DNA of 64,000 nt from positions 1 through 64,000 of IMG/VR virus record IMGVR_UViG_3300033069_001204. The stretch is one strand, 5' to 3'. This document shows positions 883-39,661 of the stretch, piece after piece. The stretch is from a virus (Duplodnaviria > Heunggongvirae > Uroviricota > Caudoviricetes). The first letter of the stretch is position 1. Each line of letters starts with the position of its first letter. Below the pieces are notes generated by a model. The model was not told where the DNA came from. It searched no databases and saw only the letters and a list, made by a program, of their open reading frames with translations. The position numbers and the translations under genes were made by a program.

Positions 883-2499
883 TCACTTCAGATCCTTCCT
901 CTTGAAAGAATTCTGTTTTTTCTTCTTAATTCCCTCCAAATGCCAGAAGGAACTCAGGAAAGGCCGGCCTCTATGGAGGGCCTGGAGGACCTTGACGGAT
1001 TTCGTTCTATCGCATTCTCCATCCCTGACCATGAGCGGGGCCACTCGCATGATGCCCTCCACCTCCTCCCTATCAGTCCGATTCAAAGTCATCACGGCGG
1101 TGGCATGGGCATACTTGCTGGAAGCCTCGGTGAAGTCGCTCCTGTCCTGGAGTTCCTTATCTCCGAACATATTCTTTCCCTGAGTGGCGGTGATCACGCA
1201 GATGTGGCGGTCGAGAGACAGCCTGCGCAAAGCCAGCCACTTCTCATCCTCGCGTTCCCTCTTGTCCTTTCTCATGGTGGACGCCTCATCGGCCAGAATA
1301 TCCGCGTAGTCAATTATTACAATATCTGCGACAAAGTTTCTCGACACCTCCCACTCATCAAGAATGGAGCGAATTCTGCTTATGGATAGCTGCCTGCTGG
1401 CATGGCAGTCCAGCATGATTCTCTTGCCTTTGAATCCGCGATTGAGAGTATTCTGGCAGTCGCGGATCTCCCTCCAAGTCATGGGATCGACTTGCTCAGT
1501 GAGACGCCACCATGCCGCAGGCCTATAGGATTTGGGATAGTGCTTGCGACAGGCAGTGCATGGGACGTATTTGCGATTGCGCTGGACGTATTCTTTCAAT
1601 GGTTCATTGTCCTGTGGCTTGCCGCAACCAAACTCGCATGTCCTGAACTCCTCTCCGCATGAATCGTCCTGGTTGCTCATGCAGTCCATCACCGGCTCAT
1701 ATCTGGGAGAGCAGTATTTCCTCAGATCGGAACGGCCCACCATCCTAATTCCAATGCGTCGGCCCATCTGATTCTTGGACAGGTCTCCGCATTGGAACAA
1801 AGCCACGTTCCTGCGAGCCTTCAGACCCAGGAAGGCCAGCTCCGTCAGCATGAAAGTCTTGCCTGACTTCGGAGGGGCCTGGAATGCCAACAGGCTGTCC
1901 CTGACCAGAAACTCGTTGAGCAGCTCCCCCAGAGCTCCGGACAGCGTCATGAGCGGCTCGCTCTCCTCAGTGAACGCGTCTATGAAGAAGCTTCTATCCT
2001 CCATGATGGAGATGGATGAACTTGTCTCGGCAGCATGTCGGGTGAATGAGGTTATGACGTCCTCAGCCTGTTCTATGTCTCCAGATATGAGATGGCGATC
2101 CAGATCGGACTTGAGGGATTTCACCCTGCAGGTCCGCAAGTAGCTTCTCGCGCCTTCCAGGAAGTGAGCCACATTGAAATGGCCGTCCTCGAATTCAGAA
2201 TCCAGGGACTTCAATTGCTTCAGGATGATGGCGGCATCCTCTTCGGAGATCGCACCATCCTCAGCGGAGGTCATAAGTAGTTCCGAAATATCGGGGCCTG
2301 GGACCTGGCCATAGCGGTCATAGTATTTCAGACACCAGTCCGCCAATATCCTGACATTCTTGGATGGGATCTTGTCCACATCTATGGCATTGCGAATCCC
2401 AATCAGAAATTTCTCGGATGAGATCAGGCCAATTAGAAGCTTGCGTTCCCCGCCACCATCAAACGATACGGTCTTAATTGCCATCAGCGTCGTCTCCAA
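883..2499 (-). CDS. DnaB-like replicative helicase (RecA-fold ATPase) with an inserted Cys-rich segment
   Basis: 538 aa. Walker A APPKSGKTFMLTELA; Walker B-like VIIDYADIL; N-terminal DnaB-like helical domain. The Cys cluster CGEEFRTCEFGCG...CTAC suggests a zinc-binding insertion. Confidence 0.7.
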   Translation of the reverse strand: METTLMAIKTVSFDGGGERKLLIGLISSEKFLIGIRNAIDVDKIPSKNVRILADWCLKYYDRYGQVPGPDISELLMTSAEDGAISEEDAAIILKQLKSLDSEFEDGHFNVAHFLEGARSYLRTCRVKSLKSDLDRHLISGDIEQAEDVITSFTRHAAETSSSISIMEDRSFFIDAFTEESEPLMTLSGALGELLNEFLVRDSLLAFQAPPKSGKTFMLTELAFLGLKARRNVALFQCGDLSKNQMGRRIGIRMVGRSDLRKYCSPRYEPVMDCMSNQDDSCGEEFRTCEFGCGKPQDNEPLKEYVQRNRKYVPCTACRKHYPKSYRPAAWWRLTEQVDPMTWREIRDCQNTLNRGFKGKRIMLDCHASRQLSISRIRSILDEWEVSRNFVADIVIIDYADILADEASTMRKDKREREDEKWLALRRLSLDRHICVITATQGKNMFGDKELQDRSDFTEASSKYAHATAVMTLNRTDREEVEGIMRVAPLMVRDGECDRTKSVKVLQALHRGRPFLSSFWHLEGIKKKKQNSFKRKDLK

Positions 2500-4096
2500 T
2501 CAATCTATCATATTCCTTTTGAACGGCCCCTGACTTCAGCGCCTTGAAGCGGGACTCAAAGAATCCAGGGATGTCCATATTCTCATAATCTATTCTTGCG
2601 CTGGACATTGTCGCCAGGTCATCGAAGAGCTCCACAGTGAGCTTGGCATCCTTGTGGAACATTCCCAAATTGACATGCTCATAATCAAGGCAATTCTCCC
2701 TAATGAATTTGTTGATATATGAGAACGAAGCATCCCTGGCATGGGTCTTGTTGAACTTCCTGCTGCAGCCCTTCCAATATGGGCCTAGCTCATCCCTGAA
2801 CTGGCCAGGACATGCTTTAGGGTCTATGGCAAAACTGCCGTCCTCCTGTTCGCCATACGTGTTCTCATAGAGCAGGTCGATGAATTCCAGGACGCCCCAA
2901 TACCAGGCTCGGAACCCGGCATGGTCCTCCTCATTTCCGGTAATGCCTCCAGCCTTTTCGATTTGTATAGCGATGTTTTCAATCAAGTCCGGTTCCCTCT
3001 CCTGGACGAAGGGGAATGGGGAATCCTCGCTTACCTTTTTGAAGCATTCCAAAACATCCCCATTCCCAGTCCCCTTCCCAAGTCCGGATTTGGAGCGGCT
3101 CGAAACTCTGGGACGATAAAGAGTGGGGATTCCTTTCCCTGTGGAGTATGCTATGGTGGCGAGAATTTCCTCAACGGAGAAATCAGCCAGCCACTCAAGA
3201 ATGAGATTTCCATGGGACTTCAACAAAGCCGCTGTGATGGGGACCTTCCTGGACTTCGGAGCGGACTTATTCAATTCAGCCAATTGTTCAATCCAGTTAG
3301 ACAAAGCCTCTTTGATTTGCGGCCATGCGTCATGCTCTTGAAGCTTCAACGGAGATGCTTCGATTATATCATCCTTGGCATTCTCTCCTGATGGCAGTAT
3401 TCCGAGGCCTGAATTTTTTTCTTTCGAAGATCTTTTTATGTCAATAATATTTCTCGAAGAATGAGAGAATTTATTATTAATCTCTAGGGGGTTATATAAG
3501 GGGGGGACATTTTCAGGGGCCATTTTGGGGGTCTGCTTGTATCGTTTTGTATTCAGCTCCTGATTTCCGAATTTGAAAATTTTAAATTCGACCCCATTTT
3601 CCGAATTTGAAAATTTTAAATTCGACCTCAACTTCTCATCATTGAGAACGCTGGAAATATAATCCTGATTCACGGCTCCCATTCTCTCGTTCAGGACCTT
3701 GAAGTTCACCCTGAACCAAATGGCATTCATCTCGTCCCGCCAGTAGTCCAGAAGGTTTCCCGACACCGTATCTTTGGAGGCCCTGGAGGCTATGGAATGC
3801 AGGACGTTCCTGACCCGATGATATGAGAGATGAAGCTCTCCGCATAGAGTCCCGGCGTCGTGGGGAGTCAGGCCCATGCGAATATGGACAGGGGAGCCTC
3901 CTGTCGATAGGACCCTATTGAGGATGAAGGTCAGAAGGTAGGCCGCCTGGAGATCCCCATCGAGCATGTGGAGAATCAATTGGTCTATGATTATTGGCCT
4001 TCGGAGATTGAATTGCTGGAGAGCATCCATAGCAGCCTCAAAATAAATTCCCTGCTGGCTTCTGGTTGGGGGCCAACCCAATGAGATCCGTGCCAA
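2474..4096 (-). CDS. putative replication initiation / helicase-loading protein with an internal AT-rich iteron region
   Basis: 540 aa. Overlaps the start of the helicase gene. N-terminal wHTH-like region. The central low-complexity linker is encoded by AT-rich DNA carrying two 30-bp direct repeats, an architecture like lambda O with ori-lambda inside it. Confidence 0.4.
   Translation of the reverse strand: MARISLGWPPTRSQQGIYFEAAMDALQQFNLRRPIIIDQLILHMLDGDLQAAYLLTFILNRVLSTGGSPVHIRMGLTPHDAGTLCGELHLSYHRVRNVLHSIASRASKDTVSGNLLDYWRDEMNAIWFRVNFKVLNERMGAVNQDYISSVLNDEKLRSNLKFSNSENGVEFKIFKFGNQELNTKRYKQTPKMAPENVPPLYNPLEINNKFSHSSRNIIDIKRSSKEKNSGLGILPSGENAKDDIIEASPLKLQEHDAWPQIKEALSNWIEQLAELNKSAPKSRKVPITAALLKSHGNLILEWLADFSVEEILATIAYSTGKGIPTLYRPRVSSRSKSGLGKGTGNGDVLECFKKVSEDSPFPFVQEREPDLIENIAIQIEKAGGITGNEEDHAGFRAWYWGVLEFIDLLYENTYGEQEDGSFAIDPKACPGQFRDELGPYWKGCSRKFNKTHARDASFSYINKFIRENCLDYEHVNLGMFHKDAKLTVELFDDLATMSSARIDYENMDIPGFFESRFKALKSGAVQKEYDRLIGDDADGN
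3562..3627. repeat. two perfect ~30-bp direct repeats (tttccgaatttgaaaattttaaattcgacc) spaced 34 bp apart, in an AT-rich tract inside the initiator gene
   Basis: Read directly: 3564-3593 and 3598-3627 are identical. The surrounding 3400-3650 is AT-rich, unlike the ~55% GC of the flanks. Candidate iterons or origin. Confidence 0.7.
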
Positions 4097-4226
4097 ATCT
4101 CAAACCAGAGGCCAGCAGGGAATTCTTTGGATGATATCCATGTGGCGGCACGTTTGTTTCTGGTGGCGAGCCAGGGCCTATATTATGCCATGGACCCTGG
4201 AAGTTTTCAAGCTAGTTCCAAAAAGA

Positions 4227-6809
4227 TTATGGAATCCATAGGACATCGAAATCGGTCCAGCCTATCTCCTTCCCATGCCAGTAGAATCTCTTGGAGCCTT
4301 CGATTGTCATTACGCCACAATGCATGACCTGATATTTCATCAGCCCTATCTTGAATGGGGAATAGCTCACCACGAAGCTACAGGATGCCCCACTCAACTC
4401 CATCTCGCAGCGCTCCCCTGTCTCAGTCCGGATGATCGCCAGAGTCCCAGTAGAAGGCAGAGGCGATAGTTCACAGTATCTAGAACCCGTGATGTAGCCG
4501 ATCTGAGTCCATTTGGAATGTTTGGCATCGGTGGGCACTATGGTGAAGCCACCTAGGGTCTTTGATGTCCGACCCGCCCAATTGCCGGCCAGAGGTCCAT
4601 GCGGAATATGTAGGACTGGAATTTCCAGACATACATGGCTGGCCTTGAATCTGCTGTGAGCAAACTCGAAATCGGAGCCTCCTGCGTTGTGAAATGTCTC
4701 TGAGTAGATTGTCGGCATAGTCAGGCAGTTTGACTCTGTTCTGAACATCTGGAAGTATCCTACTGGATCGCTGTGTAGAAAAGCCACATCGTCTTTGTTC
4801 GATCGATCGTTCGTGTATGTAGCGAGCCATTCCTCCCTCCTATCCTCTGGGATATTGAAACGTCCTGCGAAGTATAGAACGTCCTTGTCATAATGTCGGG
4901 ACTCTAGTGTCTCTCTGAGATCATCAGGGAGGATACAGTCCGCATCAGTGAGAATGATGGTATCGCAGGCGGCCATCCCTCCCCACTCGATTCCGGCATT
5001 GATCATGGCTCCCTTATTGAAGGCGGCCCCATTCTTGTGGATGACTTCCATCCCCACAGGATGAGATATCACTCCCAGCATATTGCAGAGCTGCCGGGTC
5101 TGGGCATCCTCGTAGGAGGTCACGACGACCATCCTATCGAAATGCCTTTTGTTCAGCGGCAGGGTCCAGGCCAGCATGTCGCTATAGCCTGCGCAGACTA
5201 TGACACAGCCCAGGACCCCTAGAGGGTAGATCCCATCTTTTGGGGCTTTGGGCTCCTCCATATCCCTTGGAAGCATGCCATAGCTATAGACATCCAGGCC
5301 TGCCAGATGATAGAAATCAGAGACTCCAAGCACCCGACATTCGGTCTTTTTAGAAGCGAAGGAATTATGGGAGTCATGCCAGGCCCGGACGGATGCCTTC
5401 ATCTTGGCTTCGTGGGCATCCGAGGCGCAGAATATGATGCTGTCCGAGTAGTCGAGGACGTCAATGATGGTCTTGACCGGATGCCCGTCGATCTCCTTGC
5501 ATTTTGGATTGCTGTCCCATATCGCTTTGATATTCTTGGGTTCGGGATTGACTTCCAGCATGGTGCTCAGAAAGCGGCCGGCTCCATAGAGGACCACCGG
5601 CTCTGGCCTGGACTCCAGATCATCCCATATCGCCTTCAAGAATTTCTGGTAGCGTGAAGGTTCGCTATCCTTCCCTGAGTAGTCAAGCGTCACGATCTTA
5701 TCCCCCTCATAGTTATCTGGATATCCTTTGGCCGTAGGATGGATTAGGAACGCATTATCTCCCACAATATATTTGCAGCCAGGATTCAAAATGAGCTCTG
5801 CGACTTTCTTCTTGAGCTCATCTTTCATTGCATCAGTGAGAGCAGAAGACCCTGGCTCTAGCAGCCTCCATCCATAGGACTTGATGCTCTCCTCCGTCCC
5901 CGAGATTCTCACAGAGTTGTCGCCATCCGGGAGATAGGGCTCAATAGTCAGGCCGGGTTCCGGATAATCCTCTTTGCGGTATGCTCCAATTGGAAATACA
6001 CATGCTGCCTTCCTTTTTCGAATACCCATGGACTTGAGCCTGTCGGAATGCCATTTGGACACGTAGTCCATCTTATGGCTAGCCACAGTATGTGGGACCC
6101 TGAGCGGAGCCGAGCATAGCTCACAGAACTGAAGCTGCGCTCCGAATTCCTCCGGAGCCCTTTCCCACCAACCCTTTTCAACCTTCCATGCGACATCTCC
6201 AAATGGGGAGTTGTAGAGGATGTCGAGGGCTCCAGCCACTTCGCAGAAGTATGCTCCCTTCGGAGTGATGCTGGCGCTCCACATGTTCTGAATCCAGCAC
6301 GCGTCCCTGAGAGGAATCCATTCCTCATCGGAGATCCCGAAGTCCTTGCGACATCCCAAGAGCATCTGATGCCTGCCTTCATGGCTGTGGTCATTGATGC
6401 ATTGATATGGGAACACGTCCTGTATGAGTTCGAAGTGCTTCCGATATCCTGGACCTAGCGACGTCCACAGTCCACGTTTGGAAAGCAGGACATCGGAGAG
6501 ATGCTTATTGCGATAGGCCGCAAAGTCCTTGACGGCCTGGCGCATGGGCTTGAATGGAGGAGTATGGATCTTGTCTGCGTAGTATTTGACGAAGCTGTCG
6601 AACTTCGGATGGATGGTAGGCTCGCCTCCCATGATTCCGACCATGCCATGGAATCCCAGCATGGAGTCGACAGCCTTCCTGAACTGGCCCTCCTCAGCGA
6701 AGAATGGCTTCGAGTGCCTGCCACAGAACCTCGTGCAGTTTGAACAGGAGTGGGGACATGCATTTGTGAGTTCAATCTGGATGATCTTCTGCTCAGATGG
6801 AGACTTCAT
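4227..6809 (-). CDS. multidomain enzyme: N-terminal radical SAM domain + Rossmann-like middle domain + GT-A (family 2-like) glycosyltransferase domain + C-terminal domain of unknown function
   Basis: 860 aa. Residues 13-30 ELTNACPHSCSNCTRFCG (CxxxCxxC) and MGGEPT are radical SAM signatures. Mid-region YGAGRF has a Rossmann-like glycine motif. GT2-like VIVCAGYSDM...NKGAMINAGIEW...ILTDADCILPDD contains a DxD motif. Confidence 0.6.
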   Translation of the reverse strand: MKSPSEQKIIQIELTNACPHSCSNCTRFCGRHSKPFFAEEGQFRKAVDSMLGFHGMVGIMGGEPTIHPKFDSFVKYYADKIHTPPFKPMRQAVKDFAAYRNKHLSDVLLSKRGLWTSLGPGYRKHFELIQDVFPYQCINDHSHEGRHQMLLGCRKDFGISDEEWIPLRDACWIQNMWSASITPKGAYFCEVAGALDILYNSPFGDVAWKVEKGWWERAPEEFGAQLQFCELCSAPLRVPHTVASHKMDYVSKWHSDRLKSMGIRKRKAACVFPIGAYRKEDYPEPGLTIEPYLPDGDNSVRISGTEESIKSYGWRLLEPGSSALTDAMKDELKKKVAELILNPGCKYIVGDNAFLIHPTAKGYPDNYEGDKIVTLDYSGKDSEPSRYQKFLKAIWDDLESRPEPVVLYGAGRFLSTMLEVNPEPKNIKAIWDSNPKCKEIDGHPVKTIIDVLDYSDSIIFCASDAHEAKMKASVRAWHDSHNSFASKKTECRVLGVSDFYHLAGLDVYSYGMLPRDMEEPKAPKDGIYPLGVLGCVIVCAGYSDMLAWTLPLNKRHFDRMVVVTSYEDAQTRQLCNMLGVISHPVGMEVIHKNGAAFNKGAMINAGIEWGGMAACDTIILTDADCILPDDLRETLESRHYDKDVLYFAGRFNIPEDRREEWLATYTNDRSNKDDVAFLHSDPVGYFQMFRTESNCLTMPTIYSETFHNAGGSDFEFAHSRFKASHVCLEIPVLHIPHGPLAGNWAGRTSKTLGGFTIVPTDAKHSKWTQIGYITGSRYCELSPLPSTGTLAIIRTETGERCEMELSGASCSFVVSYSPFKIGLMKYQVMHCGVMTIEGSKRFYWHGKEIGWTDFDVLWIP

Positions 6810-10439: not shown

Positions 10440-10901
10440 TCATTCTCCTATTTTGGAATTCTTCAAGACATGCTTGGCAATTTCTGCAAGCCTATCATCG
10501 GTGACAATGACGCTGCCCGTGTGCATATACCCATTGGGCATAGGAGCGCCAGCAAAATATACAATGATGCCATCACTGCATCGGACGATCTCCTCTATCT
10601 CGAAAGAGTTGCCCCGGTAATCCTTGACACGTCTTTCCAGCTCCGTCTCATCTGGCTCGGCTATTGGGGGCGTTATGGCTACCTGCTGCTCTAAGACGAG
10701 CAGGACGTCGTTTGCCCATTTGATGGCGGCTGCCTGAGCTAGGTGGGAGCTCCGCTCGGTCTCCATGCAGGTCTTCAGGGTTTTCACTCTGGACCTGATA
10801 TCAAAACCAAGCTTTATAGGGATGAAGCAGTAGAACTTCTCCGCATTCTTTTTCATCACAGCATCGCATATATTTTCGTGGTAGCATCCGCTGCAATACA
10901 T
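10440..10901 (-). CDS. hypothetical protein
   Basis: 153-aa ORF. Confidence 0.5.
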   Translation of the reverse strand: MYCSGCYHENICDAVMKKNAEKFYCFIPIKLGFDIRSRVKTLKTCMETERSSHLAQAAAIKWANDVLLVLEQQVAITPPIAEPDETELERRVKDYRGNSFEIEEIVRCSDGIIVYFAGAPMPNGYMHTGSVIVTDDRLAEIAKHVLKNSKIGE

Positions 10902-15677: not shown

Positions 15678-15730
15678 AATGAATCTCCCTCCATTCAATT
15701 ATATTTCATTTTCGGAAAATTCCACCTCCT

Positions 15731-18398: not shown

Positions 18399-19220
18399 CT
18401 ACCTGATTGGAATCATGGCCGATGGATTGTTTCCCAGCAGGAGAGTCTGCGGAGCTTGTCCATTCCACTTACGAATGGCCTCCAAGAGGATCATTGATTG
18501 TGACTGCTTCAAGGCTTCGCTCTGAATTCTCAGCGCTTCGGCCTCGCCCTTTGCTTTCGCTATCGTGGCTTCGGCTTCCTGCTGCGCCTTCTCCACAGCA
18601 TACTTGGCCGCCAGGGCCTCCTGTTCCTTCACCGTCTTTTGCTCTATTGCCTTCTCCAGGGCGTCTGTAAAATCGATGTTGGTTATGTTGACGTCAGAGA
18701 TATTAAGGATGTCGCCAACCGCTTTCTTCAGGCTAGACATTGCTGCTGCCCGGACTTCGTCGCGCTTCTTTACAATCTGATCGGCGCGATACTGGGAAGT
18801 AATCTGCTTTAAAGCCTCCTGCATTCTGGGCGATACCAAAGTCTTGAATACGCTATCTCCGGTATTGTATTCCCGGAACATGGAACATACTCGATTTTCA
18901 GGTATCGACATCAGGACGTTGTAGGAGATCTTCACAACCTGGGCGTCAGCCGTAAAGCATTCTGTGGAGTCAGACTGCATCCCGCTCTTGATGGAGACAT
19001 GATAGATTGTGGTCCAGGGAAGGGCGAAGCCAAAGCCTTCCCCAATTGCCCGGTCATCCATCTTGCCTAGGGTCACGGCTATCCCGCGTTCGCCGGGCTG
19101 GATGGTGTAGAACATCGAACAGCCTCCAATTAGGAGGAACAGGCCGATGACGAAGATGGCGATTATTGCTGAGATGGCGATTATTGCTGAGACTGATTTC
19201 ATGTTGAGTCCTTTATCCAT
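18399..19220 (-). CDS. SPFH/band-7 (prohibitin/HflC-like) membrane protein
   Basis: 273 aa. N-terminal TM helix, GERGIAVTLGK band-7 signature, C-terminal Ala/Glu/Lys coiled coil. Contains an 18-bp tandem duplication encoding AIIAISAIIAI. Confidence 0.7.
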   Translation of the reverse strand: MDKGLNMKSVSAIIAISAIIAIFVIGLFLLIGGCSMFYTIQPGERGIAVTLGKMDDRAIGEGFGFALPWTTIYHVSIKSGMQSDSTECFTADAQVVKISYNVLMSIPENRVCSMFREYNTGDSVFKTLVSPRMQEALKQITSQYRADQIVKKRDEVRAAAMSSLKKAVGDILNISDVNITNIDFTDALEKAIEQKTVKEQEALAAKYAVEKAQQEAEATIAKAKGEAEALRIQSEALKQSQSMILLEAIRKWNGQAPQTLLLGNNPSAMIPIR

Positions 19221-23998: not shown

Positions 23999-24079
23999 AA
24001 GGCCTCCTGTTTGTTGTCTGGAATTATACGACAGGCGGGGCTCCCATGCACCGGCCTGCCGCATTTATTTTCCGAAAAT

Positions 24080-28341: not shown

Positions 28342-29692
28342 TATAAGCCTCTATTCACTTAGGCCCATAATGGGAATGGGCCGGAACTCCGGTATGGAGA
28401 ACCGGCCAGCTTCCCGTCTTCAATTTCCCGGACTTGGCGCCCTTCAGCTATTCGCCTATCGCGCTGGCTATTCGAATTCCTTGCGGCCCTTCGCTCCCTA
28501 GCTACCGCCGCCTATCCATTCGCATGCCCGGCAAAGCCCAGCCATTCCTATGATGGAGAATGGCCGTCCTTCACCTTCGTCTCGTTGACTATTGTCGTCC
28601 CGTCCAACCCCTTTATGGGAGCCTTGGCATCTGGAGCCCTTTAGCCCGAATAGGCCCTTGATTATTTAATTGGCCTATGGAATTCATCTCCAGCCCTTTT
28701 GCGGCTTCCCAATATTCGATTGGGGGATTTCCTCCTTGAGGGAATTCTGATTCCCTTGGATCTTTCAATGAGCACCGGAGCCTCTAGCGCTCCTTCAATG
28801 ATTCCATTATAGAATGGGATTGCAGAATAGGCAATAGCTTTTTCCGAAAATTTTCGGAAAATAATGGAGACCCTGGAATTGTCCCTGTGGAGCCTGCATC
28901 CCTGGGCGCAGGGTCGAGCCTAATGAGTCCTTAGAGTGGAGTCCTTAAGGCCAATATAGGCTCTTTTTCAGGGCCGGAATCCCAGGGATTCCCTATTCCT
29001 TATTATATAAAGGGAATTTCAGGGGCCAAAACCACGGCCATGGAATCCGGCCATTCCAGCAAAACACGAATCCCATGATGCCATAGGACTATGATATGGG
29101 GAATCCCATGATGTGGGAATACGGGCCATGCAATGCCAGACAGGGAATGACGCCATCCCTGGGAGCCGGGCCGGGCGGGGACGGGGATGGCCCTTATATG
29201 GGAAAGAGGGGAGGGGAGGCGGGACGGAATCCCAGGGGCCTGGGGGCCGGCCGGGCCGCGCGCCGGGGGAGGCTCCCCTCCTCGTGACATTCTCTCGTGA
29301 CATTCTCTCACGACATTCTTTCCATGGCATCAGGCCCATTCCCGGTCTCTTTCCATGGCATCAGGCCCATTCCCTATTCGCCATCCAATCCTCTCCCCTT
29401 ATGGCCTTCCCTATATGCCTTCATCATATCTTTCCCCACATATCCCTCCCATGCCTTTCCTCTATGGGAATATTATGGCCTTCCCTATATCTCTCCATTA
29501 TAATATATAGTTCTCCATATAGGCCTGTCTCCATATATCCATGGTCTCCCCTATTATATTCCCATAGCCATAGTCTCCGGATTTCTCCCCCCGGAAAATT
29601 ATGTCTTCCGTGACAGACATGAAAACCGGCTGTTGGTCTTTTCCTGTATTCCCTATATATTATCCTAGCCAAACCAATAAGGAGTCCATCCA
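28342..29692. promoter_or_regulatory. 1.35 kb non-coding divergent region packed with iterons and palindromes (candidate origin, pac site or regulatory switch)
   Basis: - Only compositionally biased short ORFs.
- Contains: an 8-bp inverted repeat at 28338-28374; a 20-bp perfect palindrome tttccgaaaattttcggaaa at 28841-28860; GGAATCCC(A) at 28976 (itself palindromic), 29068, 29101 and 29226; three tandem 13-bp units at 29283-29321; a 24-bp repeat ttccatggcatcaggcccattccc at 29320-29343 and 29351-29374; atggccttccctatat at 29401 and 29476; a G-run tract at 29160-29280.
- Plus-strand composition switches from C-rich to G-rich across it. Confidence 0.7.
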
Positions 29693-30837: not shown

Positions 30838-31127
30838 TAGTCGTGGAATCGGGCTTTGTCACGATGACATGCCAGACAGTCCTTGAAGGAGGCCTCGGCC
30901 CTGAAGGCGAGTTGTTCTGTCGCCTTATGGATATCTCCGGAATTCTGGAGGTTGGCGGCGTATTCGATATCTGCTTCTATGAATCATGCCGCCTCATTAG
31001 CCGCAGGGTCAGCCCTGAGGATGCCGAGGTCCTCCGGAATATTCTGAAGTCCGGGAGGCCAATGACAATGAAAGGATACGACCATGGCATGCGTGATCAT
31101 ATGGGAATGTGGAAGCGAAACACATAA
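30834..31127 (+). CDS. hypothetical protein
   Basis: 97-aa ORF. Confidence 0.4.
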   Translation: MIVVESGFVTMTCQTVLEGGLGPEGELFCRLMDISGILEVGGVFDICFYESCRLISRRVSPEDAEVLRNILKSGRPMTMKGYDHGMRDHMGMWKRNT

Positions 31128-31256
31128 GTCAAGAGCAGACGCTGAATGCATTTCCAATAGAGGCCACATTAATCTCTCAAATGGAATTCAACGAAATATT
31201 GGAAATTCATTCAATGGAACATTATATTCTTGGAGAATATATAATGGAGAGGACTA

Positions 31257-31574
31257 ATGCGCATAACGATATCTAAAGATTTTACAGATGCTCCAGGAGG
31301 AAGATATATTAAAAATGGTGATTTTTCTGGAGAGTATTTTAGAGAAAAACATTTGGTTCCTGCATTTGACAGGCTCTCTAAAGGAGAAAAACTTATCGTA
31401 AATCTTGATGGTTGTTTTGGATTTGTGACAAGTTTCCTTGAGGAGGCCTTTGGAGGGCTTGCTAGGGAAAAAGGGACAAATGTCGTTCTAGAAAGAATTG
31501 AAATAGAAGATACTGAACAGCCAGAGCGCATAGAGTTGATCAAGTCGTATATTAAGAATGCAAATAACAAATGA
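31257..31574 (+). CDS. STAS-like (DUF4325-type) small protein in an AT-rich moron
   Basis: 105 aa. KLIVNLDGCFGFVTSFLEEAFGGL resembles the DUF4325/STAS pattern (xDFxGVxxISSSFxDEaFG). Local GC is much lower than the flanks. Confidence 0.4.
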   Translation: MRITISKDFTDAPGGRYIKNGDFSGEYFREKHLVPAFDRLSKGEKLIVNLDGCFGFVTSFLEEAFGGLAREKGTNVVLERIEIEDTEQPERIELIKSYIKNANNK

Positions 31575-31583
31575 AGGCTTTAA

Positions 31584-31829
31584 ATGTTAATGGCAATTGA
31601 ACTTATTAAATTGTTGGTGCAAATAGGCCTTGCGACTGCCATTTGTTATCTTGGATATAAACTTTCTGCTTTTAGAGCTGCAAATGAGAAGAAAATAGAG
31701 GTTTGCCTTAAGATTTATGATGAGCTCATATGTGCATTTAATAATGAAGAAGAATTTATAAGAAGTGCAGAAAAAACTGGCCGTAAAGATGAGGTTGTTA
31801 AGCTTGTATTCTCAGGGACAAGGCACTAG
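31584..31829 (+). CDS. small membrane protein (N-terminal TM helix) in the AT-rich moron
   Basis: 81 aa. LLVQIGLATAICYLGY is a hydrophobic helix. Co-directional with the STAS-like gene, 10 nt downstream of it. Confidence 0.45.
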   Translation: MLMAIELIKLLVQIGLATAICYLGYKLSAFRAANEKKIEVCLKIYDELICAFNNEEEFIRSAEKTGRKDEVVKLVFSGTRH

Positions 31830-31888
31830 AAACTTGGAATTACTGGCACGCAGCTGATACTCAAAAACATCAATAGGAGGACATCATA

Positions 31889-38764: not shown

Positions 38765-39159
38765 ACTACGAACTGGAATGCAATCGCAGATGGGATCTGG
38801 GAACCCGGCTCATTCAGGGCGGAGGCCCGGCCATGCCGACAAAGCTGTGGTCTTCAGAGTTCAACATGGTCTATCTGGTCATTCTCAATCAGATGTTCGA
38901 AGATCGGGATCGCTGGGACTACTCCAACGGAATGTTCAAGGTGGGAATTCCATGCTTGTTCTGCTCTTCGGATATCCCCATGCATCTCAAGATAGACGCG
39001 AAGAAGGGCCTAGTGGTGGAATACGCGTGCCAGGAATGTGGAGGGGTCCAGGGAGAGGGCGAGATATCCGGAGGCTGGGGAGACTATGCATTATCGGCCG
39101 GACACTATACGCGGGCGTTCTTCAGGGGGAAGGCGATAGCCCAGCATCCATCGATCTGA
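38758..39159 (+). CDS. hypothetical Cys-containing protein
   Basis: 133 aa. Last gene of the rightward block; convergent overlap with 39122..39661. Confidence 0.4.
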   Translation: MVNYELECNRRWDLGTRLIQGGGPAMPTKLWSSEFNMVYLVILNQMFEDRDRWDYSNGMFKVGIPCLFCSSDIPMHLKIDAKKGLVVEYACQECGGVQGEGEISGGWGDYALSAGHYTRAFFRGKAIAQHPSI

Positions 39160-39661
39160 ATATTCTTTCCTGGGCCAGAGCCAATTGATGGGCCTCTTCA
39201 TATCCCAGGCCGGGCCTCGTCAGAAGATACAGGACCTCCATGATCTCATGGAACGCCTTATACTTCCGCTGGCATGGAGCCAGGTTGGCATCAATCCAAA
39301 TCTGGAATTCAGGACAATAGGCATTGTGTCTAAGATAGTTAGCCCCCTCCGCGAAGTCCATATCATGGAGCAGCTTGACCTTGCCGCCATCAACCAGGCC
39401 TACCATATGGGGCTTTCCGAGAAGGGTGAAGTCCATTCTGGACGTGCCCGGATCGTCGAAGCTCCTCACACGCTCCACGATCTTCGGAGCTATTGGATTC
39501 CCAAATCCTTGGAAAGCTGTGCTAACATCCCCTGGACGGAACGACCCCGTTGCGACCTGCGGGGAGGGAGAAGATCCAGGGGATGTTAGCGCAACATTCA
39601 TAGCTGTCCTCCAATAGAAGTCTTGATGCCAAAGAAGGTGAGCACGGCTCCAGCCACCCAC
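39122..39661 (-). CDS. hypothetical protein
   Basis: 179-aa ORF; the probable start is the internal MNVALTSP. Confidence 0.4.
   Translation of the reverse strand: MGGWSRAHLLWHQDFYWRTAMNVALTSPGSSPSPQVATGSFRPGDVSTAFQGFGNPIAPKIVERVRSFDDPGTSRMDFTLLGKPHMVGLVDGGKVKLLHDMDFAEGANYLRHNAYCPEFQIWIDANLAPCQRKYKAFHEIMEVLYLLTRPGLGYEEAHQLALAQERIFRSMDAGLSPSP

Follow-up and report, generated by a model that had tools for sequence, protein, structure and literature searches.

The Locus and Its Genes

The stretch of DNA considered here, hereafter the window, comprises 64 kb of a tailed phage (IMG/VR record IMGVR_UViG_3300033069_001204, positions 1 to 64,000) with a mean G+C (GC) content of 0.53. It holds a gene for an initiator-like protein, inside which two 30-bp repeats and an AT-rich tract make up a candidate replication origin (Table 1). 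The end of this gene overlaps by 11 nucleotides (nt) the start of the gene for a DnaB-like replicative helicase, an arrangement that suggests translational coupling between the two. The helicase, for which 99 homologues were collected, several of them with PF03796, is the proposed client to be loaded at the candidate origin. A second assembly (Logan SRR32380203) contains 14,030 nt, including the repeat region, at 100% identity.

It is likely that translation of the initiator-like gene starts at the ATG at 4030, as the JGI gene call and the alignment of the relatives indicate, rather than at the TTG at 4096, which in the mechanical open reading frame (ORF) would give a protein of 540 amino acids (aa). 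The protein begins with an N-terminal domain of about 134 aa and ends with a conserved C-terminal domain of about 290 aa; the low-complexity linker that joins them is encoded by the DNA carrying the repeats and the AT tract. We infer the label "initiator" from position, domain layout and repeats, and not from homology.

Table 1. Positions of the features discussed (window coordinates, unless a relative's locus is named).
Feature	Position	Strand	Details
Initiator-like gene	2474-4030	minus	518 aa from ATG 4030; JGI gene call P0001; alignment with L002 and L007
DnaB-like replicative helicase gene	883-2484	minus	phrog_19, E 3e-17; TIGR03600 phage_DnaB, weak; JGI and Logan gene calls
Repeat copy 1 (first in gene sense)	3598-3627		dyad 3602-3624, A4T4 centre; translated RSNLKFSNSE; proposed initiator-binding site (iteron)
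Repeat copy 2	3564-3593		identical 30-mer; dyad 3568-3590; other frame, translated VEFKIFKFG
Repeats, window	codons 135-156		2 x 30-mer, period 34 nt; dyad CGAATTT-N9-AAATTCG
Repeats, L002	codons 133-146		2 x AGACCAAAAGGTCTT[G/T]CCC, period 21 nt; dyad AGACC-AAAA-GGTCT
Repeats, L007	codons 138-164		3 x AAATTCAAAACCTTTGAATT[C/T], periods 33 and 24 nt; dyad AAATTCAAA-ACC-TTTGAATT, 8-nt arms
C-run/TATATA/C-run box, 27 nt	3480-3506	minus	CCCCCCCTTATATAACCCCCTAGAGAT; between repeats and AT tract; once in window
AT-rich tract, proposed DNA unwinding element	3400-3486		GC 0.29; stability minimum 3427-3486
Stability minima	window 3427-3486; L002 10479-10538; L007 986-1045		z 4.4; z 3.6; z 2.9
Candidate sigma-70-like promoter, initiator-helicase operon	4182-4210	minus	TTGAAA-17-CATAAT, extended TG
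Y-shaped (three-way junction) leader	window 4044-4126; L002 9897-9985; L007 336-421	minus (window)	
TTTTCCGAAAA sites	15709-15719; 24068-24078; back-to-back pair 28840-28861 (28840/28851)		each 8-45 nt upstream of a minus-strand TATAAT
Repeats of 28342-29690	29281-29319		CTCGTGACATTCT x3
Repeats of 28342-29690	29317-29374		perfect 27-mer x2, spacing 31 nt
Repeats of 28342-29690	29399-29502		30-mer x2, 87% identity
Repeats of 28342-29690			GAATCCCATGATG x2; GC-rich block, then TATAT-rich low-stability stretch

The Repeats and the Adjacent Stability Minimum

The repeated unit is the 30-mer TTTCCGAATTTGAAAATTTTAAATTCGACC, which occurs in the window exactly twice, at the positions and the 34-bp period given by the sequence-only reading of this DNA. 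That reading had also described the encoded segment as a low-complexity linker, and the translation does read ...RSNLKFSNSENGVEFKIFKFGNQ... as claimed. When the 29-mer core was searched with up to 3 mismatches, these two matches were the only ones in 64 kb, and none of 100 shuffles yielded any match. The two 34-nt units differ at two positions, both within the 4-nt spacer, which by our own arithmetic has a chance of about 0.01 under random placement. Each unit contains the dyad CGAATTT-GAAAATTTT-AAATTCG, with perfect 7-nt arms, an A4T4 centre and an N9 gap; the degenerate pattern RAATTY-N9-RAATTY matches twice in 64 kb, both times here, against 0.06 expected, and four of the seven occurrences of the half-site CGAATTT in the window fall in the repeats. 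A search around the repeats for degenerate additional iterons or half-sites found none, neither the repeat nor its dyad recurs elsewhere in the 64 kb, where no second set of sites of the oriR kind turned up, and the exact dyad had 0 matches in viral contigs. The 34-nt repeat was missed by Tandem Repeats Finder, and was picked up by a direct-repeat finder and by a census of our own, which counted tandem repeats of 18 nt or more with no more than 1 mismatch and a spacing of 10-40.

A period of 34 nt does not divide by 3, and the two copies, although identical as DNA, are consequently read in different frames, giving the peptides RSNLKFSNSE and VEFKIFKFG. Copies that are read in two frames and differ in the spacer only point to selection on the DNA rather than on the peptide.

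The sequence-only reading had likewise placed an AT-rich segment in the ORF directly upstream of the DnaB-like helicase gene, and this proved correct: the ORF overlaps the helicase start, and its GC content falls to 0.29-0.33 over 3353-3678. The segment is the third-lowest-GC 250-nt stretch in the window and the sole one of those three within a long ORF. Duplex stability was estimated by a nearest-neighbour thermodynamic proxy in 60-bp windows, the kind of unwinding-element check that had been proposed for this DNA, and the least stable 60-bp duplex in the entire 64 kb was found next to the repeats, at 3427-3486 (free energy -1.082 against a mean of -1.438 and a standard deviation of 0.08 kcal/mol per step; z about +4.4). 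In the gene sense, this minimum lies 78-137 nt downstream of the repeats.

The reading frame remains open across 260 nt of AT-rich DNA, as happens in 0.1% of shuffles, and the other five frames contain 2-8 stops; the ORF is therefore a single gene, whose protein has a low-complexity linker. The possibility that the AT trough marks the boundary of two mis-fused genes was considered and rejected, since no stop interrupts the frame in any of the three relatives and their proteins align collinearly across the trough.

The Protein Family and Its Relatives

The protein was compared with the known families. Neither the 518- nor the 540-aa version, whole or by domain, matched anything in Pfam, PHROGs, NCBIfam or PDB profiles, and no match came from 50,697 phage records searched with tblastn. 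At E up to 10, Pfam matched neither the entire protein nor one of its two domains in any of the three family members, Phage_rep_O being among the families left unmatched, and the PHROG "replication initiation O-like" was not matched either. An hhalign comparison of the N-domain alignment with lambda O gave a probability of 0.1, the SPP1 G38P family (pfam09524 according to PMC5737612) had no Pfam or PHROG match to the protein, and Rep_3/WH-type families had none.

Relatives are few. A word-indexed search of 5.8 billion proteins matched the query itself alone, whereas an exhaustive HMMER search of 1.84 billion representatives retrieved one full-length relative, P0002 (locus L002), and one fragment, P0003. 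A third full-length member (L007) was reached indirectly, through the helicase homologues, which brings the family to three full-length members in about 15 billion proteins searched overall; protein patterns run against viral, metagenome and genome contigs gave no further loci. Judged by these searches, the protein family is new, shows no homology to known initiators that they could detect, and is extremely rare in present-day databases. The L002 protein is 35% identical to that of the window by phmmer and the 515-aa L007 protein 33% identical (E 3e-68), full-length alignments of the window protein with these two lying at 32-35%, and the linker is the poorly conserved, length-variable part.

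The initiator-like and helicase genes are adjacent and in one operon, with the helicase downstream, in the window, L002 and L007 alike. The sequence-only reading had named, as grounds against itself, related phages that keep the protein and lack the repeats; both full-length relatives carry repeats at this very place (Table 1). Sequence and copy number of the repeats vary between the three phages, and what is kept is their position and the palindromic tandem design. The half-site design RAATTY-N9-RAATTY is common to the window and L007, whereas the L002 design differs. Our census found a single tandem repeat in L002 (12.5 kb) and a single one in L007 (4 kb), both in the linker; of the three that it found in the 64-kb window, one is in the linker. 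At about one tandem repeat per 16 kb, we estimate that three in the same linker of about 150 nt would be a coincidence of about 1e-6. Moreover, in the window, L002 and L007 the least stable 60 bp of each available locus lie 43-137 nt after the last repeat in the gene sense.

Phages with more distant helicases add supporting context. In L009 (helicase 36% identical), the gene ahead of the helicase has weak matches to the "replication initiation O-like" and "replication initiation protein" families and to DnaD-like ones, and in L010, also at 36% identity, an HTH_36 protein and a DnaC-like loader lie upstream of the helicase.

A Conserved Box Between the Repeats and the AT Tract

The DNA that separates the repeats from the AT tract contains a 27-nt box made of a TATATA flanked by C-runs. 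Its counterpart in L002, at 10472-10498, is CCCCCTCTTATATATCTCCCTAAAGAT, with 23/27 ungapped identity to window positions 3506->3480. Within the initiator gene, the box is the sole stretch that blastn detects between the window and L002, and it sits in the least conserved part of the protein. Its codon phase differs, since window position 3506 is a codon position 3 and L002 position 10472 a codon position 1. The local alignment of the post-repeat linkers of the window and L002 scores 36, a value reached by 0 of 300 dinucleotide shuffles (18.6 +/- 2.6); the pairs involving L007 are weaker, with scores of 27 (3/300 shuffles) and 26 (11/300). The box is single-copy in each locus, and the idea that it might be a recurrent promoter motif was rejected on that ground. 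The box is likely a cis element of the same module as the repeats and the AT tract, although we hold this with less confidence than for those two.

Boxes of the type CCCCCTTATATA[AT]CCCCCTA were also seen in L004 (300-319) and L005 (2712-2731), in AT-rich intergenic DNA by recombination or replication genes. Among 2.9 million viral contigs, the box pattern was matched in these two unrelated ones only, a number close to the chance estimate, and we draw no inference from them.

The comparison of the three loci bears directly on neutral slippage, that is, on recent tandem duplications tolerated in a disordered linker whose AT richness would merely reflect relaxed constraint. The linker is indeed poorly conserved and variable in length, the window copies are perfect, as they would be after a recent duplication, and the window has other tandem repeats, at 19153 and 29316. 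Slippage would nevertheless have to produce, in three diverged phages, a different tandem repeat at the same codons each time, and every one of these repeats is internally palindromic with an A-tract centre. It would also leave unexplained that the copies are in different frames that are both open, that the frame stays open over the AT tract, that the differences between copies are confined to the spacer and that a DNA box is kept across a frame shift. We consequently regard this explanation as improbable.

A Candidate Origin Embedded in the Initiator-Like Gene

Bacteriophage lambda served as a positive control. Its record contains four 18-nt iterons at 39034-39118, corresponding to codons 117-145 of the 299-codon O gene, and these are dyads around an A-tract, such as TCCCTC-AAAAC-GAGGGA. 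When the same stability script was applied to the lambda O-P locus, the minimum fell at 39122-39181, directly after iteron 4 (z 2.6). Because this control gives iterons followed by a stability minimum inside O, the geometry found here is likened to that of lambda: at the level of the sequence it is the same succession of N-domain, dyad repeats, AT tract, C-domain and helicase-related gene.

The features of embedded origins are found at this locus, namely dyad repeats after the N-domain, an adjacent downstream AT element and a helicase-adjacent operon. The most likely functional class is thus the embedded origin of the lambda/SPP1 type, in which the binding of the repeats by the gene's own product and the replication from them are putative. 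We estimate at roughly two in three (0.65) the probability that the segment is a replication origin embedded in the phage's own initiator gene, of the lambda ori/SPP1 oriL type, on the comparative evidence and the lambda control. This origin is favoured because three diverged phages and lambda all show repeats and then a stability minimum inside the gene before the helicase-related one. The lambda-type interpretation that the sequence-only reading had put forward is accordingly supported, in so far as both relatives share the layout and the lambda control gives the same signature.

A mechanism can be envisaged for such an origin. Dimers of the N-terminal domain of about 134 aa would occupy the two 30-bp repeats, with a single dimer on each dyad (GAATTT-N9-AAATTC), and the intrinsically bent A4T4 centres, together with the protein complex, would strain the DNA. 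Supercoiling and transcription through the gene could then help to melt the AT tract, at about 3427-3486, starting at the TATATA of the box, which would form the near edge of the tract to be melted. Transcription from the promoter-like site (4210->4182) may assist the origin, as transcription does in lambda. The conserved C-terminal domain would recruit the co-translated DnaB-like helicase and, since the two genes overlap without a separate loader, this large domain may itself take the loader role. Finally, the primase of the phage (11145-12068) would join, along with the other replisome components.

Several observations weigh against this interpretation. The protein shows no detectable similarity to any initiator family, and the AlphaFold predictions, with predicted local distance difference test (pLDDT) values of 41.5 for the full length and 46.8 for the N-domain, are too poor to use, so that a DNA-binding N-domain is assumed. 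There are two repeats here, compared with four in lambda and six in Stx phages. The GC skew, another of the checks proposed by the sequence-only reading, tracks gene orientation and leaves no mark at the candidate origin. With only three family members, the co-variation of repeats and N-domain is beyond statistics. The distant syntenic phage L012 (helicase 34% identical) is an ambiguous case, as its 412-aa protein has a marginal similarity around a PLKLxEH motif (hhalign E 0.028) and its linker contains G-runs and palindromes but no long tandem repeat. Lastly, a repeat-dense region of about 1.35 kb without a credible ORF (28342-29690), lying between early minus-strand genes on one side and the topoisomerase and terminase genes on the other, may be the main origin or a second one, a packaging site or a regulatory region. 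It has no copy of the iteron dyad.

The L012 linker deserves a separate description. At 2590-2740 of this phage, whose GC content is about 0.33, the linker is GC-richer than its surroundings and contains runs of G6-7, the arrangement GGTACC-TTTA-GGTACC and the perfect palindrome TCGCGAATTCGCGA. It may represent the same module in another construction.

The Operon Leader and Other Readings of the Dyads

Upstream of the initiator-like gene, a candidate promoter is followed by a leader that is predicted to fold into a Y shape. A TTGAAA hexamer resembling a -35 element was found by eye at the same relative place in L002 and L007, ahead of the Y-shaped leader in all three loci. After the leader come a T-run, a ribosome-binding site (GAGG in the window) and the start codon, which in the window is the ATG at 4030. 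The RNA folds at -53 (z -5.2; window), -65 and -52 kcal/mol, with z of -5 to -10, and compensatory double changes are seen at 23 of the 37 consensus pairs when the three loci are compared. The leader resembles a branched terminator or attenuator that would gate the replication operon, which would make it a control region and not part of the origin core. Well supported as it is by the compensatory changes, it may be the more original lead.

Taken together with the box, these features leave room for a more elaborate but tentative proposal. An unrecognised initiator family would act on an origin of three parts, consisting of lineage-specific dyad iterons, the 27-nt box and the AT-rich element, in an operon gated by the leader. 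As an equally tentative part of the same proposal, the box would be kept at the DNA level across frames and recognised by the C-domain, the helicase or a host factor, not by the variable N-domain; and it would possibly be the site of helicase loading or of the nucleation of melting.

The elaborate leader and the promoter-like site also suggest tight control of the operon, and dyad-symmetric sites 21-34 bp apart are typical of operators. The repeats might then work as intragenic operators for a regulator, be it the product of this gene or a different phage DNA-binding protein, with a transcriptional roadblock or autoregulatory effect on the C-terminal half and the helicase. This has to be judged together with the motifs that recur elsewhere in the window. 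The sequence-only reading had pointed out that the repeat shares a TTCCGAA core with such a motif, and TTCCGAA is in fact enriched about twofold (18 occurrences against 8.6 +/- 2.8 expected). The coherent recurring element is, however, a distinct one, the near-palindromic TTTTCCGAAAA, with 9 strand-hits against 0.6 expected, to which the iteron matches at only 8/11, so that the enrichment stood and the identity of the two elements did not. From its place upstream of TATAAT hexamers, TTTTCCGAAAA is probably a promoter-associated operator or activator site, separate from the 30-mer. The repeat starts with TTTCCGAA, partly like TTTTCCGAAAA, which would suit an operator, but the latter motif is absent from the relatives' loci and no promoter-like site lies near the repeats. 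Furthermore, operators leave the stability minimum after the repeats unexplained in all three phages and in lambda, and in lambda and SPP1 the binding of the initiator inside its gene is the origin function itself. On balance, intragenic operators are an unlikely explanation of the repeats, though one of more weight than slippage.

A function of the dyads at the RNA level, with mRNA hairpins that pause ribosomes or guide an RNase between the domains or before the helicase cistron, was also weighed. The two units can pair (-15.1 kcal/mol as single-stranded DNA, z -4.75), and hairpins are possible in all three relatives. These hairpins are A/U-rich and weak, without a T-run after them; any dyad binding site folds so, and the fold is not specific. 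An RNA element would account neither for the adjacent stability minimum nor for the frame-shifted box, and Rfam, run over 3300-4300 to cover repeats and leader, gave sub-threshold miRNA noise only. Such a function appears very improbable, and the embedded origin remains the preferred reading of the repeats and the AT tract.

The Surroundings in the Window

The window carries the genes expected of a tailed phage, with small and large terminase subunits, major head protein, protease and tail fibre. Besides the initiator-like protein and the helicase, the replication block encodes the primase, a SNF2 helicase, a sigma-like factor, a ligase and a topoisomerase.

Palindromic repeats inside genes can serve in partition centromeres or packaging recognition sites, as in N15 sopC and in the pac sites of P22 and SPP1, and some other cis function of this kind might be claimed for the repeats. 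No ParA/ParB-like gene turned up among the ORFs scanned, the terminase genes are 29 kb away, beside another repeat-rich region, and the repeats are tied to replication genes in all three loci. We give this explanation the smallest weight of all.

A 7-deazaguanine gene set flanks the replication genes (447-845 and 4227-6809 in the window; 13186-16593 in L001). QueD lies at 447-845, and a QueE-like gene, QueC and FolE (GTP cyclohydrolase I) are found just outside the window start. Beside the Que set there are genes for a Methyltransf_24 protein and for an 860-aa protein that weakly matches radical-SAM and glycosyltransferase-2, and the ensemble suggests modified DNA. In the three family loci, Que genes are present wherever the available sequence extends beyond the helicase gene, and such genes after the helicase were also noted in L006, L008 (QueD only) and L012.

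The most AT-rich island of the window (31124-31836, GC about 0.30) contains small plus-strand ORFs, one of them of STAS/DUF4325 type by eye, and is located at a switch in gene orientation; it looks like acquired cargo rather than non-coding DNA. At 19154-19192, a perfect 18-nt tandem repeat of AGATGGCGATTATTGCTG, present in 2.2 copies, lies within the ORF 18399-19220 (phrog_200, annotated "lipoprotein").

Comparison with Known Systems

The design of such origins is already well known, and their working principle is unchanged by the present case; the novelty lies in the protein family, in the additional conserved box and in the structured leader. An uncultivated phage of about 89 kb gets a predicted origin made of two 30-bp sites, a 27-nt box and an unwinding element of 60-90 bp, and an orphan gene family without annotation gains a probable role. 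In addition, tandem dyads followed by a stability minimum in the gene before the helicase could provide a homology-free signature for the initiators and origins of metagenomic phages, one that recovers lambda ori.

The lambda origin lies in the middle of O, and two of its iterons plus the AT tract are enough for unwinding and for replication in vitro (PMC7466680, citing Dodson 1986 and Wickner & McKenney 1987). Like lambda ori, the candidate origin is located midway along the initiator gene, where the linker follows an N-terminal domain of about 115-135 aa, and it consists of tandem dyad sites with an A-tract centre followed by an AT-rich local minimum of stability (PMC7466680). In both cases the linker peptide is of low complexity and rich in K, E, N and S, and the next gene serves the helicase step. 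As among the lambdoid phages, the sequence of the repeats changes between relatives while their position is kept. The two systems differ in that the protein here has no similarity to O and is longer (518 aa versus 299 aa), in that two 30-bp sites at a 34-bp period stand against four 18-bp sites at 20-24 bp in lambda, and in the additional conserved box of 27 nt between repeats and AT tract. The downstream gene also differs, being a phage DnaB-like helicase here and, in lambda, a P-type loader that hijacks the host DnaB.

In SPP1, oriL lies inside gene 38, where repeats and an unwinding element are combined, and the phage encodes its own DnaB-type helicase (PMC5737612). The likeness extends to the initiator-binding repeats (candidate ones in the present case) and the AT-rich unwinding element inside the initiator gene, to the phage-encoded DnaB-type helicase of the same operon (SPP1 having G38P as organiser, G39P as loader and G40P as DnaB-type helicase) and to an initiator without an AAA+ domain (PMC5737612). 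Unlike SPP1, the present phage shows no G38P-family similarity, no equivalent of oriR as a second set of sites within the 64 kb and no separate loader gene between initiator and helicase.

The iteron origins of the plasmids pPS10, RK2 and R6K, built of Rep, iterons and a DNA unwinding element, resemble the candidate origin in having repeated initiator sites beside an AT-rich unwinding element (PMC4980987). Plasmid iterons are usually intergenic, direct, more numerous and bound by Rep monomers, and dyads there are the operator form. The sites described here, in contrast, are dyads inside a coding sequence, and their putative initiator has no Rep_3/WH-type match.

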